Translations under genes and position numbers: made by a program
IMG/VR virus record: IMGVR_UViG_2600254997_000008
Direction: 5' to 3' (one strand)
Origin: a virus
Taxonomy: Duplodnaviria > Heunggongvirae > Uroviricota > Caudoviricetes
Length of the DNA: 9,632 nt
Notes under the pieces: model-generated
The model's database searches: none
What the model saw: the letters and a program-made list of their open reading frames with translations, nothing else
What the model was told of the DNA's origin: nothing
Part shown: positions 1-7,604 of the stretch, in pieces
Layout of the letters: each line of letters starts with the position of its first letter
Numbering within the stretch: the stretch's first letter is position 1

Positions 1-240
1 CTGAGCGAGAGAAGAGGCCAGTGACACAAGGCGTCGTGTACGACGCGGATCACCGAGACGGGCATGTCCAAACTGCTCGTTAGCCCATGAATAACAATCA
101 GAAAGTACCATAACAGACCCGAAGAAAATGAAATATAAGAGAAGATCAACGGGTGAGGAAAAAGTTCAAAAAATCGCTGCCGGGGAGGAAGGAAACTACC
201 GGATGGAAAGAGTCCCCCTAAAGCAGACTGACAGACATCA

Positions 241-262
241 CAAATCCCCGGGTGGGGATTTG
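241..262. repeat. Perfect palindrome: 9-bp stem CAAATCCCC / GGGGATTTG around a 4-nt centre GGGT
   Basis: Read directly from the sequence at 241-262. Not followed by a U-run on either strand, so not a typical intrinsic terminator. Lies immediately inside the IS50-like terminal sequence. Confidence 0.5.
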
Positions 263-276
263 TGTATAAGAGACAG
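258..276 (-). mobile_element. IS50/Tn5-like terminal inverted-repeat-like 19-mer (minus strand CTGTCTCTTATACACAAAT)
   Basis: From memory, the 19-mer matches the IS50 outside end (CTGACTCTTATACACAAGT) and the Tn5 mosaic end (CTGTCTCTTATACACATCT) at 17/19 positions each. It sits exactly where stf homology ends. The other end and any target-site duplication are outside the window. Confidence 0.3.
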
Positions 277-1054
277 CTTTGGCCCGGGAGGTCCCACCAC
301 GGTGGGGATTCGGTTTACGGCGTCTTCCGCCGCTATCCTGCTTTGTTCCGCTGACTGTGCGCTTTCTGCTGACTCCCGGGCTTTTTCTGCTGCGGTCGTT
401 GCATCCCTGGATGCATTACCGGCTGCACTTTCTGCCGTCTTTCTTGACAATTCAGCTTCTGCTGCACTTTGTGATGACTCACTGGCTTTTTGAGCGGCCG
501 CAGAAGCCGAGGACGAGGACGCATCCTCTGACTGCTTTGCTGAGGCTGCACTTTCCGTCGCCTGCCGGGCTGACTCCGATGCATCCCCTGCAGAAGTCTC
601 AGCATTTACTGCACTCTTTTCCGCCTGGCCGGCTGATATACCCGCATTCCTCGCTGACGTCTCTGCCTCTCCGGCATTCTTCTTCGCCTCCTCAGCGTGA
701 CGCGCTGCCTCTTCCACCATCAGTTCAAAACGTCGCAGTGCCTCCGGACGGGCATCATCCTCCGTCATGGCACCGAGAAAATCATTCAGCGTACCGGGTT
801 GAGAATCTTCATACACGGTGATGGTCCCGGCATGTGACGGCGGGAATCCCTCCACCAACAGAATAACGCTGTACTGACCGTACTCAACGTCCATACTGTA
901 ACGCCCGGCTTCATCCGGATTTTCTGAGGCCAGCGTGTTCACCACCACAGTGGTACTGTTACGTTTTGCTTTCAGCTGGATTGTGCAGTTCTGTACCGGT
1001 TTTCCTGTGCCGTCTTTCAGTACACCTGAAATCTTTACTGCCATATTCACCCCA

Positions 1055-1081
1055 CAAAAAAGCCCGCCTGAACCGGCGGGC
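1055..1081 (-). terminator. Rho-independent terminator-like hairpin between lom and stf
   Basis: On the minus strand: 8-bp GC-rich stem AGCCCGCC / GGCGGGCT with a 6-nt loop, followed by a run of six T (plus-strand A-run at 1055-1060). Lies downstream of the lom stop at 1109. Confidence 0.5.
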
Positions 1082-1108
1082 TGTCATAACACTGTGTTAC
1101 CTGGCTAA

Positions 1109-1708
1109 TCAGAATTTATAACCGACACCCACGATGAAACCGTCAGTGCGCCAGTCACCACTGCCGGAGCCTTCATAAGCAATATCAATGGCCACGGATT
1201 CGGTCGGGTTAAACTGCACGCCAGCCCCCCACGCCAGAGACGTGTTGCTGTGGCGACCGTCATCACTTCCGGTCAGCACATCGTGCGTTTTCCCCTTGTT
1301 GTCAGTTACGCGGAGATAATCCCCGGAGAAAGTCGACACACGGCTGTAAGCCACACCCGCCATCGCATACGCGCTGAACCATTCATTCACGCGCACAGAC
1401 GGCCCCGCCATCACGCTGAACCAGCGGTTACGCACGGAATCTTCATGCCAGCGGGTATCGCTGTAACGGGTAAGCTGGCGATTCTTGTCTCCTGCATAGC
1501 TGAATGACGTCACCAGCCCCAGCGTGTCCGTAAATTCATAACGGTATTTCACGTTAATCCCGTTAAGATTATCGCTACCGGGAGCGTTCGTCCGGGCATG
1601 AAGATACCCCGCGCTCAGTGTGGACTGATGTTCAGACGCCCATGCAGGCGCACCGGATACGGACAGACAGATGGCTGCGGACAAAATGGCTGCACAAACT
1701 TTACGCAT
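1109..1708 (-). CDS. lom: Outer-membrane beta-barrel protein Lom (Ail/Lom/OmpX family), a lysogenic-conversion moron
   Basis: 199-aa ORF. N-terminal signal peptide [25 protein letters not shown]-terminus ...[24 protein letters not shown] matches lambda Lom and ends in the aromatic residue typical of outer-membrane barrels. Sits between J and stf as in lambda. Shine-Dalgarno GAGAGG lies about 6 nt upstream of the ATG at 1706-1708. Confidence 0.85.
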
Positions 1709-1732
1709 AATTACCTCTCGCTTTTCTGCAAT

Positions 1733-1757
1733 AAAAAAGGCACCATTTCTGGTGCCC
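1733..1757 (-). terminator. Rho-independent terminator-like hairpin between J and lom
   Basis: On the minus strand: stem GGCACCA / TGGTGCC with loop GAAA, followed by TTTTTTATT (plus-strand A-run at 1733-1738). Lies downstream of the J stop at 1778 and upstream of the lom start. Confidence 0.5.
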
Positions 1758-1777
1758 TTATATGGGTTATAACAATT

Positions 1778-4700
1778 TCAACGAATACTGATGCCGGAAG
1801 CGGCTTTTTTGGTCACAATCACCGTACAGTCGGTGATATTACCTGCCCACTGATTGCCTTTATGGAAAACCTTAAACTCCAGAGTGACGCTTCCCCTGCC
1901 ACTCGGCATATCAATAACCGCACTGTAGCTACCGGGAATGGCCCCTTTAGTTTCTCTGGATGCGATTAATACACCGTTTTTGCGAACTTCAAAACCATAA
2001 CCCGTGTAACTTGTACCTCCCGGGTTATTACCACTTCCCGGATAGCTATACGCTATTCCGTTAAAGATAATGGGCGGAATAATGATTTGACGGTCAAAGT
2101 TATGATCATCGCTGATGGTGACTGTAACCGTCCCGTTTGGTGTTTCCGTGTTACCCCACGTACCAGCCTGTTTCGGAAATGATTTGGATACAGCTTTAAC
2201 GAAGTCACCTCTGACCTGAGTCGCCTCCAGCATGCCCTTAATCGTACAGTTTTCATTTACCGTGACGTTGTTGAGCGTCCCGGAGTTCGCATTCACGTTA
2301 CCGCTGATATCCGCATTTCTCGCCGTCAGCCGCCCGTCCGGTGTCAGGGAGAATGCCGGAGGATTACCGCCGCTGGTAATTGTTGGAGCCGTCAGATACT
2401 TCAGGAACACTTCGTTCATGAATATCTGGTTGCCCTGCGCCACAAACATCGGCGTTTCATTCCCGTTTGCCGGGTCAATAAACGCGATACGGTTAGCGGC
2501 AACCAGGAACTGGCTCAGTTTGCCTTCCTCCGTATCCTCCATGCTGAGGCCAAGCCCCGCGACATAATGCCTGCCGTCCTCGGTCTGCTCAATTTTGACG
2601 CCCCACATGGCATTCCATTTATCGTTGGCGTCCTTCCACTCTTTCGAAAACTCCTCCAGTTTGCTGGCGTTATCCTCCGTCAGCTCGACTTTTTCCAGCA
2701 GCTCCTTGCCGAGATGGGATTCGGTTATCTTGCCTTTGAAAAAATCCAGGTAACCTTCCGCATCATCGCTCGCCCGACCGACGGCCTCCACGAATGCCGA
2801 TTTGCCAACGGTGTTCACACTGCGAACGTAAAAATAATAATCATGGCCCGGCTTAATATTGATACTGGCGGCTATCCAGTACAGCGCCGTGCCAAGATAG
2901 CGCGCTGTGGTTTCAACCTGCCGGATATCGGCAATCCGCTTTTCCGAGAACCAGAACTCAAACTGTACCGTCGGATCATAAACCGCAAGATGCGGCGTGG
3001 CGGTTATCTGAAAATAGCCCGGCGTCAGCTCAATCCGCGACGGCGCTGCCGGTGCGGCAATCCGGAACGATACCGATGCCGGATCGCCCTGCTGTCCCCG
3101 GGCATTTACCGCCCGGACCTTCAGCGTGTAACGCCCCAGCGCCAGTTGCCTGAAGCGGTATGTGGTTTCCGTCGTCCGGGCCGTGCTGACCAGCCGCTCA
3201 CTGCCGTCATCCGCTGCCACGGTCAGGCGAAGCAGGAAACTCACGCCCTTCACCACCTTCGGCGTGTCCCAGCGGGCCAGTACCTGATACTCCCCGCTGT
3301 CTGCGGTGACTTCTGCGGTCAGATGCTGCACTGCTGGCGGCGTGACACCATTCACCGTGCCGCTCTGGTTACCGTCAAAGTGCGCCCCGTTATCCACGAT
3401 GGCCTCTTTTGCCGGCACATGCTGCACGGCAGTGATGGCATACGTGCCGTCATCGTTCTCACGGATACTCACACAGCGGAACAGGCGCTGACGCAACGTC
3501 GGCAACTTCAGCCCCCATACGCTGTATCCGGCAACGCCGTCAGGAACACGGCTCACTTTCACCTTCACGCCGTCGGTGACGGACTGGACCTCCACGCTCA
3601 CCGGATTACCCTGCCCGTCAACCAGGCTTATCAGCGTGGTGCCGGAGGATGGCAGCGTGATTTCACGGTCGAGCGTCAGCGTCCGGGGTCTGGCTGTTCA
3701 CCGCCAGCACGCGCCCGCCGGTGCTGATACCGGCATAGTCATCATCGCAGATTTCAATGACATCGCCCGGTACATGGCGAAGCCCTTCAGCACCCACGCT
3801 GAAGTCCACGGTCTGCGTTTCCAGCAGCTCCGTTTTAATCAGCCACAGCCCGGCGCGGTGTGCCTGCCCCCGACTGGTACAGCCAAAGGCATCCATCTTC
3901 GTGACGTTACGACCGTAACGGGCAATGGCCTGCGTGTCCTCCACAAGCTCCGTTGCCGTCTCCCAGCCGTTATCCGGGTCAGTCCAGTTCACCTCAACGG
4001 CATTATGGCGGTCCTTCAGGGCGCTGAAACTGTAGCGGAACGGCGCGCCATCATCCGGCATCACCACATTACTGCGGTTATAGGTCCACACCTTATCCGA
4101 TGGTCGGTCCTGCACGAACGTCAGCGTCTGCCCGTTCCATACCGGCATACAGCGCATCGCAGAGCAGAAATCACTGAGCACATCCCACGCCTTGCGCTGT
4201 GTGGTCAGGTACGCATTACAGGTGATGCGCGGCTCCGTGCCGCCAAAGCCGTCCGGCACTGACTGGTCGCAGTACTGGCCGATGACATACAGCGCCCATT
4301 TATCCACATCCGCCGCACCAAGACGTTTCCCCATGCCGTAGCGCGGATGGGTCAGCATATCCCACAGACACCAGGCCATGTTGTTGCTGTATGCCGGTTT
4401 AAACGTCCCGTCCCAGATACCGCTGTATTGCCGCGTCTGCGGGTTATAGTTCGACGGCACCTGCAGAATGCGCCCGCGAAGATTGATAAATTACGGCTTC
4501 ACCTGCTGGCTGCCGAACTGCTCCGAATCCACCTGCACGCCGACCAGTGCCGTGTTCCGGGTAGCAACTGTTTCACATCGATGATTTCGGTGTATGACGA
4601 CCAGAGCGTTTTGTTCTGCAGCTGGTCTGTGGTGCTGTCCGGCGTCATCCTGCGCATCCGGATATTAAACGGGCGCGGCGGCAGGTTACCCACCACCACC

Positions 4701-5197
4701 GAGGCCAGATACTGCGAGGTGGTTTTGCCCTTAATGGTGATGTCTTTTTCCGTCACCCAGCCACCGTTACGCTGTATCTGAACCAGCAGGCGGACTTCCG
4801 ACGGATTCCTGTCTCCCTTTGAGGTGGTTTCCACCAGTGCCTGTACACCGAAGGTAAAGCGCAGACGGTCGATGTTTGCCGACGTGATGGTCCGGGTGAT
4901 CGGCGTGTCATATTTCACTTCCGTACCCAGCACAGTCTCGGAGCCGGAGGATTCAAACCCCTCCGGCGGAGTCTGCTCCTGCTCACCTGCCCGGAACACC
5001 ACCGTGACGCCGGAGATATTGGTATTCCCCTCACTGTCCAGCACCGGCGTACTGTTCAGCAGCACGCTTTTTAATCCGTCCACCGGACCTTCAATCGGCC
5101 CTTCGCTGATGACATCGATCACACTCAGCAACTGCGTGGATTTCAGGTTGTCCTTCGCTTCGCGCGGGGTATGCCCCTTACTGCTGCCTTTACCCAT
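1778..5197 (-). pseudogene. J: Tail tip / host-specificity protein J (central tail fibre), disrupted by frameshifts and an in-frame stop
   Basis: Three consecutive minus ORFs match lambda J from N to C: 4499..5197 (MGKGSSKGHTPREAKDNLKSTQLL...), 3663..4460 (PSNYNPQTRQYSGIWDG...) and 1778..3601 ([15 protein letters not shown]... to the C-terminus). The breaks are single-base insertions at roughly 4564-4565, 4555-4556, 4498-4499, 4488-4490 and 4483-4484, which also create an in-frame TAA at 4491-4493, plus one in the G-run at 3685-3688. The span is 3420 nt; removing six inserted bases gives 3414 nt, or 1137 codons (lambda J is 1132 aa). Confidence 0.85.
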
Positions 5198-5210
5198 TCC
5201 TCATGCTCCA

Positions 5211-5240
5211 TAAACGACAAAACCGCCCGCAGGCGGTTTC
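5211..5240 (-). terminator. Stem-loop in the I-J intergenic gap, possibly a weak terminator or attenuator
   Basis: On the minus strand: 8-bp stem AAACCGCC / GGCGGTTT with loop TGCG, followed by TTTTGTCGTTTAT. Lies between the I stop (5258) and the J start (5197). Function is inferred from structure only. Confidence 0.3.
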
Positions 5241-5257
5241 ACATAAAACATGTTCCA

Positions 5258-5930
5258 TCAGCGACCAATCACCACGATTTCACCACCATCACCTTCATCA
5301 GCTGTACTGATCTCCTGAGATGCCACACGTGACCCCACGCGCATTTCACCGAACAGAACGGGCAGAACATTGCCCTGGGCAACCATGTTATCCAGTGAGG
5401 AGAAATAGGTGTTCTGCTTACCGTTATCCGTACTGGTCGCTGTGGGCGTCCGGGCTTTCGGTGCCAGCATCTGCGCCACACCACCGAGCACCATACTGGC
5501 ACCGAGAGAAAAACAGGATGCCGGTCATACCTCCGGCCCCCATGGCTGCCCCCCATGCTGCAAGGGTGGCTCCGGCGGTAAAGAATGATCCGGCAATGGC
5601 GGCTGCTCCCAGGACAATCTGGAATACGCCCCCTGACTTGGCCCCGGCGACTCTGGGAACAATATGAATCACAGCGCCATCAGGCAGAGTCTCATGTAAC
5701 TGCGCCGTTAATCCGGACGTGCTGACGTCCCGCCCGGAAATCCGTACCTGATACCAGCCATCGCTCAGTTTCTGACGAAACGCCGGGAGCTGTGTGGCCA
5801 GTGCCCGGATGGCTTCAGCCCCCGTCTTCACACGAAGGTCGATGCGGCGGCCAAATCGTTGTAAATCCCCGTAAAGGCAGATGCGCGCCATGCCCGGTGA
5901 CGCCAGAGGGAGTGTGTGCGTCGCTGCCAT
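5258..5930 (-). pseudogene. I: Tail tip assembly protein I, frameshifted
   Basis: ORF 5424..5930 carries the lambda I N-terminus (MAATHTLPLASPGMARICLYGDLQRF...). ORF 5258..5494 carries the C-terminus (...SMVLGGVAQMLAPKAR...VVIGR). The frame switch maps to a 5-A run at 5509-5513 (minus strand TTTTT; four would give ...GILFSLGASMVLGG). The span is 673 nt; minus one base gives 672 nt, or 223 aa, which equals lambda I. The I start overlaps the K 3' end by 102 nt, as in lambda. Confidence 0.85.
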
Positions 5931-6571
5931 TTGTCGGTATACCTCTCTCGTTTGCTCAGTTGTTCAGGAATATGGTGCAGCAGCTCGCCGTCACCACAGT
6001 AAATAGCGGCATGATTCGGCACCGATGAACCAAAGCAGCACAGCAGCACATCGCCCGGCTGCGCCTCTGTCAGTGCGACACGGTAAAAACCAGTCGCCTC
6101 CATATTGTCAAGATAGAGATTCTGACCGTTACGCCACCAGTCATCCCCGCGATGAAAATCCGGCATCTCAATTCCCGCCAGATGGTAAGCATCCCGGAAC
6201 AGCGTGTAACAGTCCGTCACCCCGTGCTCAAAGCGCCGCCCGGTGAGATGCGGCACACAGCGGAACTTGTGAATCGCCCCCCGGCAGACCAGCCACCAAG
6301 GCAAATCACTCTGCACCTGCAGCCGCCGGTCGGCCTCACTCAGCCAGGGCAGACCACCGGGGTGACTGTGGACCAGCGCCACAATCTCCCCCTGCATTTT
6401 GGCCTGCAGCCAGTCCTCCGGAGCCATCCGGAAATAATCCTCCGGTTCACTGGAGATATTCACGCAGGGGAAATATCTTTCCCCCTCCGGCGTTCTCACC
6501 ACGAAGCCGCACGACTCCGCTGGCGCACATCGCCGGGCGTGCGCCAGAATCGCTGATTCTGTCTCTGTCAT
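5828..6571 (-). CDS. K: Tail tip assembly protein K (JAMM/MPN domain plus NlpC/P60-like domain)
   Basis: Minus ORF 5828..6613. The most plausible start is the ATG at 6569-6571 (MTETESAILAHARR...), 4 nt after the L stop, giving 247 aa. Lambda annotation uses the internal Met at about 6427 (199 aa). JAMM motif HSHPGGLPWLSEAD (HxHx7Sx2D) is present, with a Cys-containing region (DCYTLF) downstream. Confidence 0.85.
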   Translation of the reverse strand: MTETESAILAHARRCAPAESCGFVVRTPEGERYFPCVNISSEPEDYFRMAPEDWLQAKMQGEIVALVHSHPGGLPWLSEADRRLQVQSDLPWWLVCRGAIHKFRCVPHLTGRRFEHGVTDCYTLFRDAYHLAGIEMPDFHRGDDWWRNGQNLYLDNMEATGFYRVALTEAQPGDVLLCCFGSSVPNHAAIYCGDGELLHHIPEQLSKRERYTDKWQRRTHSLWRHRAWRASAFTGIYNDLAAASTFV

Positions 6572-6575
6572 GGGA

Positions 6576-7274
6576 TTACTGCGAAAGTTTGTTAATGGAA
6601 AGGAAGCCGCCAAAGTTGCCGACGTTATTGCGGAACTTACAACCGCTCAGGCATTTGCTGCATTTATCCTTCGTGATATCGGAAGTTGGCTGGTCATATT
6701 CATCCGCGACCGCCGGACCGTGATAACCGCACTCACCACCGCGATAGGTCCAGGTGCAGGTATTAGCCAGCATGATACGCCCCGGAAAAACAGCACCATC
6801 CGTTTCCGTCGGCGTGGACAACACAAAGGAGGCACTGACCGCACTCAGTTCGCTGCACTGCTCAATGCGCCAGCGGCTGATCACCTCCTGCTCCGGATCG
6901 GCGTCACTGTTTCCGTTGACGAAGTTCACCGCATCCAGAAAACGGGCGTAAACCTTACGCCGGACCACCGTTCCGCCGACCAGACTCTGCAGATCTTCCG
7001 CCATCCCGGTGACCATACCGTACAGGTTAGAAACCGTCAGCGTGGGGCGCGTACTGGTGCCTTTGCCATTCAGTTCAAAACCACTCCCCTGAATGGGATA
7101 CGGCTGATACTGTCGCCCCTGCCAGGTGACCGGCTCACCTTTTTCGTTCTGCTCATTACAGAAAAAATAACGTTCTCCACCGACCTCTGTCAGATCGATT
7201 TCCCAGAGCACCACGCTGGCCGACTGCTCCACACGGGTGCATTCATTCAGTGTTTCCTGCCGGATATCCTGCAT
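6576..7274 (-). CDS. L: Minor tail protein L
   Basis: 232-aa ORF: MQDIRQETLNECTRVEQSASVVLWEIDLTEVGGERYFFCNEQ...CSKCLSGCKFRNNVGNFGGFLSINKLSQ. Same length as lambda L, with the C-terminal Cys cluster. Its start overlaps the expected M stop (TGATG). Confidence 0.9.
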   Translation of the reverse strand: MQDIRQETLNECTRVEQSASVVLWEIDLTEVGGERYFFCNEQNEKGEPVTWQGRQYQPYPIQGSGFELNGKGTSTRPTLTVSNLYGMVTGMAEDLQSLVGGTVVRRKVYARFLDAVNFVNGNSDADPEQEVISRWRIEQCSELSAVSASFVLSTPTETDGAVFPGRIMLANTCTWTYRGGECGYHGPAVADEYDQPTSDITKDKCSKCLSGCKFRNNVGNFGGFLSINKLSQ

Positions 7275-7604
7275 CAGTTCACCACCTGTTCAAACTCTGC
7301 GCTGAACTCAACACGCAACATACTGACCCGCGACGACCATTTTGCGCAGGTCACCTTTATCTGCCTGCAACTCATAAGGCGGCGTCCACAGAAAGGACTT
7401 CCAGCCACCGTGCTCTGCCAGAAACGACTCCAGCACCGTGGCCTCCTCACGGGAGACAGAAAGCGTCACGCTGTACGTTTTCAGGTCAGCATTCAGCCCG
7501 GCAGGCGCACGCTGGGAATAGCCATCACCAAAGCGCACCTCCCTGACAGAAGGAGCCGAAGCCACATCCATACCGGGTTTCACTTTCCAGCGGAAGGTTT
7601 TCAT
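7274..7604 (-). CDS. M: Minor tail protein M, C-terminus frameshifted by a 1-bp insertion
   Basis: ORF 7308..7604 begins MKTFRWKVKPGMDVASAPSVREVRFGDGYSQRAPAGLNADLKTYSVTLSV... as in lambda M, but ends after an aberrant tail (LQADKGDLRKMVVAGQYVAC). The adjacent frame encodes ...QIKVTCAKWSSRVSMLRVEFSAEFEQVVN and stops at TGA overlapping the L ATG. The frame switch is near 7364-7373. Span 331 nt; minus one base gives 330 nt, or 109 aa, which equals lambda M. Shine-Dalgarno GGAGGT lies upstream of the ATG at 7602-7604. Confidence 0.8.

Follow-up and report, generated by a model that had tools for sequence, protein, structure and literature searches.

Laboratory lambda, known as lambda PaPa, lacks side tail fibres through a 1-bp frameshift in stf. 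Loss of the side fibres in lambda slows adsorption, is non-lethal and is tolerated in lambda PaPa. As to the transposable elements that bear on the present locus, Tn5 has a weak target consensus, A-GNTYWRANC-T. Insertion sequences (IS) of the IS50 subgroup are recognized by a size of 1350-1550 bp between two terminal inverted repeats, by ends of the form CW------Y---CA-A--W-, by a DDE transposase with the YREK motif Y-(2)-R-(3)-E-(6)-K, and by direct repeats of 8-9 bp (PMC2266710). The outside end of IS50, CTGACTCTTATACACAAGT, and the mosaic end of Tn5, CTGTCTCTTATACACATCT, are both found in a published oligonucleotide table (PMC3347997). Moreover, IS186 follows the target rule 5'-GGGG(N6/N7)CCCC-3' (PMC5009759). 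ISEc13, the element with which this analysis is concerned, is only listed in the open-access papers found to mention it.

The stretch of DNA that we analysed (the window, 9632 bp) is the entire draft contig ALNX01000136.1 of the EPEC strain E851/71 (ALNX00000000, assembly GCA_000754045.1). Its positions 277-9632 share 95% identity with the phage 434 tail region and carry, all on the minus strand, the phage 434-like genes stf, lom, J, I, K, L, M and part of H. The match to phage 434, and likewise to intact E. coli stf, begins exactly at position 277, and identity to ISEc13 ends at 276. The sequence across the junction reads ...CACAAATCCCCGGGTGGGGATTTGTGTATAAGAGACAG|CTTTGGCCCGGGAGG..., base 276 being the last before the break, which is where a first-pass annotation, made from the letters of the window, had seen the tail-fibre coding signal end (276/277). 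The coordinates of all features are collected in Table 1.

Table 1. Features at the junction between stf and ISEc13 (window coordinates)
Feature	Position	Strand	Remarks
ISEc13 transposase-proximal end (IS50 'outside end'-like)	1..276	-	276/276 identity; contig breaks inside the element
ISEc13 transposase, first 37 codons	1..111	-	ATG 111-109, reads toward base 1
IS-encoded tail LSLIHKSPPGDL of the fused ORF, with stop codon 238-240	238..276	-	translation
Perfect palindrome, 11-bp stem and 4-nt loop	239..264		overlaps terminal-repeat positions 13-19
19-nt terminal inverted-repeat sequence CTGTCTCTTATACACAAAT	258..276	-	carries TTATACACA; fits IS50-subgroup consensus
Predicted target-site duplication CTTTGGCC or CTTTGGCCC	277..285		putative; second copy beyond the contig
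Truncated stf, codons 1-256 of 437	277..1044 (1044->277)	-	phage_tail_N, Ala/Ser-rich region, first collagen-like triplets

Translation of the minus strand runs through the N-terminus of Stf and its Ala/Ser-rich region to GPPGPK, and then continues with the IS-encoded tail to a stop codon. The fused product thus has 268 aa, 256 of which belong to Stf and 12 of which are encoded by the IS. Pfam assigns PF08400 (phage_tail_N) to the called stf product, and stf genes in several complete E. coli genomes are 100% identical in nucleotide sequence over window 277-700. In a relative with an intact stf (L002), the gene has 437 codons and reads ...NRIPTVVGPPGPK-GEPGPAGPQGPKG... across the junction position, so that GPPGPK is followed by GEPGPAG... 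up to 437 aa instead of by LSLIHKSPPGDL and a stop. The stf of the window is a truncated member of the lambdoid Stf family: only the first two Gly-X-Y triplets (GPPGPK) are left, nearly all collagen-like repeats are gone, the C-terminal 181 residues are absent, and the C-terminal domain and tfa are off the window. The contig also lacks the fibre-assembly gene downstream. Since the C-terminal 181 residues are missing, stf of the E851/71 prophage is a pseudogene, and side tail fibres are presumably not made. For annotators, this means that the 268-aa product is not to be reported as a tail-fibre variant. By analogy, the prophage would resemble lambda PaPa as a lambdoid phage that loses the distal part of Stf by a mutation in stf and keeps its J-based central fibre. 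Unlike in lambda PaPa, with its 1-bp frameshift, stf is here interrupted by an IS in its collagen-like region, and the prophage of E851/71 may be defective on other grounds.

The sequence to the left of the junction is the end of ISEc13, an element of the IS4 family, IS50 subgroup. Window 1-276 is identical at every position to the last 276 bp of the reference copy in E2348/69, the other EPEC strain examined (L001 2501-2776). When window 1-400 was compared by megablast with 5426 complete E. coli genomes, thousands of places matched from position 1 to 276-282, 31-33 of them in E2348/69; the few matches that reach 277-282 do so by flanks of their own that resemble CTTTGG by chance. The matched places are labelled 'IS4-like element ISEc13 family transposase' by PGAP (NCBI). 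In the reference copy, the annotated coding sequence WP_000244358.1 starts at L001 2611, corresponding to window 111 on the minus strand. The transposase codons 1-37 present in the window are identical to those of the reference copy and are preceded by a leader of 165 nt. A scan for sigma-70-like promoters in window 1-1200, including this transposase leader, found none. ISEc13 reference copies measure 1550 bp and have CTGTCTCTTGATCAGATCT and CTGTCTCTTATACACAAAT as their ends, and the remaining 1274 bp of the element at stf lie beyond the contig. The ISEc13 end accounts for where the draft contig stops: short-read assemblies break at repeats, and this multicopy IS interrupted the contig after 276 bp of its sequence.

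The assignment to the IS50 subgroup draws on the window and on complete copies of ISEc13 elsewhere. Comparison of the full transposase of the reference copy with the Tn5 transposase structures 1MUH/4DM0 gave an E value of ~6e-84, and the catalytic residues D, D and E as well as the YREK signature match; the aligned motifs are LEDTT/IEDTT, CDREADI and YERRWLIEEYHKAWK, the last one corresponding to Y..RW.IEE.HK. The 19-nt end in the window, which begins with 5'-CT, has the consensus bases C1, T2, T9, C13, A14, A16 and T19. In the reference and other copies, ISEc13 also agrees with the subgroup in size, end consensus, YREK motif and repeats of 8-9 bp. The proposal of the first-pass annotation, the end of an IS4-family or Tn5-like element inserted in stf, is therefore borne out by 276 nt of exact ISEc13 sequence and by a transposase homologous to that of Tn5.

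The 19-mer occurs once in the window, and 0 occurrences would be expected by chance even if three mismatches were allowed. Against the IS50 outside end it shows two mismatches (17/19), and against the Tn5 mosaic end likewise two, at positions 17-18 (17/19); the first-pass annotation had counted two differences from each, and both reference strings have now been verified. The motif TTATACACA within the 19-mer probably corresponds to the DnaA box that the IS50 outside end contains, and the other terminus of ISEc13, CTGTCTCTTGATCAGATCT, presumably equals the IS50 inside end (19/19). The latter terminus contains two GATC sites and the stop codon of the transposase gene. IS50/Tn5 thus shares with ISEc13 a homologous DDE/YREK transposase (E = 6e-84), a similar length, an outside-end-like terminus with 17 of 19 positions in common, and a target duplication of 8-9 bp. 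Unlike IS50/Tn5, ISEc13 has perfect palindromes at both ends, with stems of 11 bp and 13 bp, and the ISEc13 targets seen sit between CCCY and RGGG arms. IS50/Tn5 itself was rejected as the source of the left-hand sequence, given the two mismatches in the 19-mer and a transposase that is homologous to, and clearly diverged from, Tn5 Tnp. With the ISEc13 of E2348/69 and of many other genomes, in turn, the window has in common the 19-nt end, the subterminal palindrome, the 5' UTR and 37 transposase codons. It differs from the reference in that it contains the end of the element only, and in that no match listed for the 5426 complete E. coli genomes lies at this location in stf.

ISEc13 has very probably entered the collagen-like region of stf, in the lambda/434-like prophage of E851/71, by simple cut-and-paste insertion. 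By homology with Tn5, the transposase would bind the 19-bp ends, and the element would be excised and joined into a staggered cut, with duplication of 7-9 bp of target sequence. The outside-end-like terminus abuts stf codon 256, and the Stf frame runs 12 codons into the IS before it stops. The resulting fused product is devoid of most collagen-like repeats and of the entire C-terminal, presumably receptor-binding, part. Moreover, the fibre-assembly gene downstream would be split from its operon, and the prophage would then be unable to make side tail fibres.

Simple insertion also predicts the far side of the element. There, a 7-9 bp copy of CTTTGGCC(C) would mark the joint between the inside-end-like terminus CTGTCTCTTGATCAGATCT and the rest of stf (GGAGAACCGGGGCCC...), and a contig end would read ...GGGCCCCGGTTCTCC-CTTTGGCC(C)-CTGTCTCTTGATCAGATCT in the direction of the window's plus strand. 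The length of the predicted duplication should be loosened from strictly 9 bp to 7-9 bp, because 13 other ISEc13-like sites duplicate 7-9 bp, 8 bp being the commonest length for ISEc13. On the far side, the open stf frame reaches back no more than 24 nt into the IS, and neither this stretch nor the following 60 nt offers a start codon, so that no diagnostic far-side protein would be called. Exact-pattern scans of GTDB representative genomes, IMG/VR and JGI metagenomes did not find the observed junction, and neither junction is present among the matches listed from the complete E. coli genomes (5426). For the predicted far junction (stf 3' side, 0-20 nt, inside-end-like terminus), a scan of the JGI metagenomes gave no match, and a scan of GTDB representatives with the ISEc13 end for more insertion sites gave no exact match.

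The other copies of ISEc13 provide the evidence on how the element selects and duplicates its targets. Our sample of insertion sites comprised 15 full-length copies, chromosomal or plasmid-borne, together with an internally deleted derivative and a pair of copies of an E. fergusonii relative that are ~89-90% identical; the site flanks were taken from L006-L018, L020, L023 and L024 and compared with window 271-291. This yielded 13 independent sites with repeats, which are 7 bp long at two sites, 8 bp at six and 9 bp at five, two of the last being slightly diverged. At all 13 sites, the duplicated core lies between a 5' pyrimidine run (cccct, ccctc or ccccc) and a complementary 3' purine run (agggg or ggggg), giving the layout CCCY...RGGG; the chromosomal matches were ranked by a query that included ~6 flank bases, which may bias the first core bases, not the arms. 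At least four of the six adjacent positions can pair at 9 of the 13 sites, compared with 4% of background positions, and the reconstructed empty sites fold as hairpins in which the core is the loop. Many of the sites lie between gene ends, such as those of yccJ/agp, cirA/lysP, tldD/aaeR and rcnB/yehA, and the potential hairpins are often terminator-like.

In the intact stf of L002, a pyrimidine run (ttctcc) precedes the predicted duplication and a purine run (gggagg) follows it. The stf site, ttctcc-CTTTGGCC(C)-gggagg, allows two to three of the six arm pairs and is a loose fit to CCCY/RGGG. Its pyrimidine and purine runs stem from Gly-Pro codons (GGN CCN) on the opposite strand. It is plausible that the CCCY/RGGG layout gives the reason why this spot in stf was targeted. 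ISEc13 might even be a structure- or motif-directed IS that chooses 7-9 bp loops between CCCY and RGGG arms, a generalization that we put forward tentatively and with some doubt. The element itself bears a conserved CCCC-N4-GGGG palindrome that overlaps its terminal repeat.

A comparable target preference is that of IS186, which is placed in a different part of the IS4 family. As in IS186, the core of ISEc13 targets has no conserved sequence and is variable in length, and it is flanked by a short palindrome of G/C runs that seems to be what is recognized. The two differ in polarity, the ISEc13 arrangement being the mirror image, CCCY...RGGG with the core as the loop of a hairpin, compared with GGGG...CCCC in IS186. 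They also differ in the size of the core, which is 7-9 bp for ISEc13 and 6-7 bp for IS186.

The internally deleted derivative of ISEc13 is ~955 bp long (L020 1123-2077; L021 1124-2077) and has both ends intact and no transposase gene. It adjoins parB on IncF plasmids and is flanked by a diverged 9-bp repeat.

A rearrangement could likewise leave a genuine ISEc13 end at position 276, the junction being the scar of an IS-mediated deletion, of an inversion or of recombination between two copies. The 3' part of stf, together with tfa and the cargo downstream, would then be absent or located elsewhere in the genome. ISEc13 copies do take part in deletions and recombination, as seen from two of the 15 full-length copies, which are not flanked by a direct repeat and lie next to truncated genes: L001, found between glmS and a partial PTS gene, and L019 on pMAR2. 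Moreover, E2348/69 has ~30 copies that are able to recombine, and the contig of E851/71 stops inside the IS, which leaves the far side unconstrained. Against this stand the recognizable 7-9 bp repeats at the other 13 of the 15 full-length copies and at one internally deleted derivative, which mark simple insertions, as well as the stf site, where a pyrimidine run and a purine run are arranged as at primary insertion sites. We therefore regard a rearrangement as unlikely and retain simple insertion as the preferred reading.

That the junction is an artefact, namely a remnant of a Nextera/Tn5 mosaic-end adapter, a laboratory mini-Tn5 or an assembly chimera, is extremely improbable. The 19-mer matches the mosaic end at 17 of 19 positions, it sits at the end of a contig, and the many homopolymer indels in this contig suggest a modest sequence quality. 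However, a mosaic-end adapter or a mini-Tn5 requires the exact CTGTCTCTTATACACATCT together with adapter or vector sequence; positions 17-18 differ, and the 257 nt past the 19-mer are native ISEc13. The match to the native IS is 100% over 276 nt, and it includes the 5' UTR and the start of the transposase gene. ISEc13 is, moreover, abundant in natural replicons of E. coli, Shigella and Salmonella. The junction also recurs independently. Two contigs, ALNX01000136.1 and an unrelated 1083-bp contig of an ENA metagenome, have the fused 268-aa product on record in exactly this form, and the DNA of the latter is identical across the junction and also ends within the IS. An adapter, a mini-Tn5 and a chimera are thus ruled out by the 276-nt identity to the IS, the mosaic-end mismatches and the independent recurrence of the junction, and the alternative of a library-adapter or mutagenesis artefact, which the first-pass annotation had kept beside the IS, falls away.

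Just as improbable is an alternative 3' module native to stf to the left of 277, for which the high mosaicism of tail-fibre genes and a frame open over 12 codons could be adduced: no listed stf match in the 5426 complete E. coli genomes reaches left of the junction, intact stf read across it carries on with collagen repeats, and the left-hand sequence is also found at unrelated chromosomal and plasmid sites beside a transposase gene. In line with this, comparison with related prophages, by which the first-pass annotation had proposed to check its reading, turned up intact stf genes that are free of the left-hand sequence, and none with it as a native part of stf.

An ISEc13 insertion that truncates a prophage stf is an ordinary event of a kind already known. 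IS insertions in prophage genes are common, ISEc13 is catalogued and abundant in E2348/69, and the finding itself matters little. Of wider interest is solely the target rule that ISEc13 seems to follow. If it is true and has not yet been described, target specificity would explain the hit on the collagen-like Gly-Pro codons of stf, and ISEc13 would be a natural relative of Tn5/IS50 with a strong target rule. If it were confirmed genome-wide, it could hold modest interest for the biology of transposons and for the prediction of IS hot spots, such as terminators and collagen-like repeats.

The end of ISEc13 is further marked by a perfect palindrome, the only hairpin-type inverted repeat of at least 9 bp in the 9.6-kb window. 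Its arms, 239-249 and 254-264, read CACAAATCCCC gggt GGGGATTTGTG. The first-pass annotation had correctly called it perfect and had given it a 9-bp stem at 241-262 just inside the end; the stem is in fact 11 bp long (239-264), and since the right arm shares positions 13-19 with the terminal 19-mer, the palindrome is part of the end. It is kept in ISEc13 relatives of 97%, 93% and 89-90% identity. In the E. fergusonii form, the loop and the innermost part of the stem are changed (CCCCG-gatt-CGGGG) and pairing is retained. The copies from E. marmotae and E. fergusonii (L022, L023 and L024; 89-93% identity) have a T-to-C change in the palindrome, which produces an A-C mismatch on the plus strand and a G-U pair on the transposase-sense strand. 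The same change turns their 19-mer into CTGTCTCTTATACACAAGT, which is one mismatch away from the IS50 outside end.

When the RNA spanning the junction was folded, the palindrome hairpin came out as the dominant helix, and the 231-nt fold as a whole is not unusually stable (z = -1.4). A terminator scan of the minus strand did not flag the palindrome, because no T-run follows it, and an intrinsic terminator of stf read-through was accordingly rejected as its function. The palindrome could act in DNA as a site for the transposase or a host factor, or it could form a structure in RNA made by read-through, a process that matters here because stf and the transposase gene are co-directional. Both genes are on the minus strand (window 111-1044), and late-operon transcription through stf would therefore enter the IS via its outside-end-like terminus and the palindrome.

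At the other end of ISEc13 (L001 1229-1259) there is a perfect palindrome as well, with a 13-bp stem and a 5-nt loop, which includes terminal-repeat positions 3-15, the two GATC sites and the transposase stop codon. Isolated 43-bp remnants that consist of the ISEc13 terminal repeat and palindrome (window 234-276) are found on several plasmids of the Shigella virulence type (matches H99-H105, on Shigella and E. coli plasmids).

Elsewhere in the contig, window 3611-7643 has many single-base indels relative to phage 434, for example at 3685, 4484, 4488, 4498, 4558 and 4566, and further ones at 5509, 6576, 7366 and 7643. The clearest of them (3685, 4484-4498, 4558, 4566 and 5509) consist of one extra base in a short homopolymer. 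The indels split J into three ORFs (1778-3601, 3663-4460 and 4499-5197), and the I/K region has short gene calls only. These indels reflect either sequencing error in the draft or a decayed prophage.

Between lom and stf, a strong terminator-like hairpin is present on the minus strand at window 1061-1082, with eight pairs followed by TTTTTTG, at the position of an annotated terminator in phage 434. Finally, relatives with an intact stf carry type III effector cargo directly past stf-tfa, namely cif in L002 (1394-2242) and NleC/NleH/NleB-like genes in phage 434 (L003 1-3006); the corresponding cargo region of E851/71 lies beyond the IS, off the contig.
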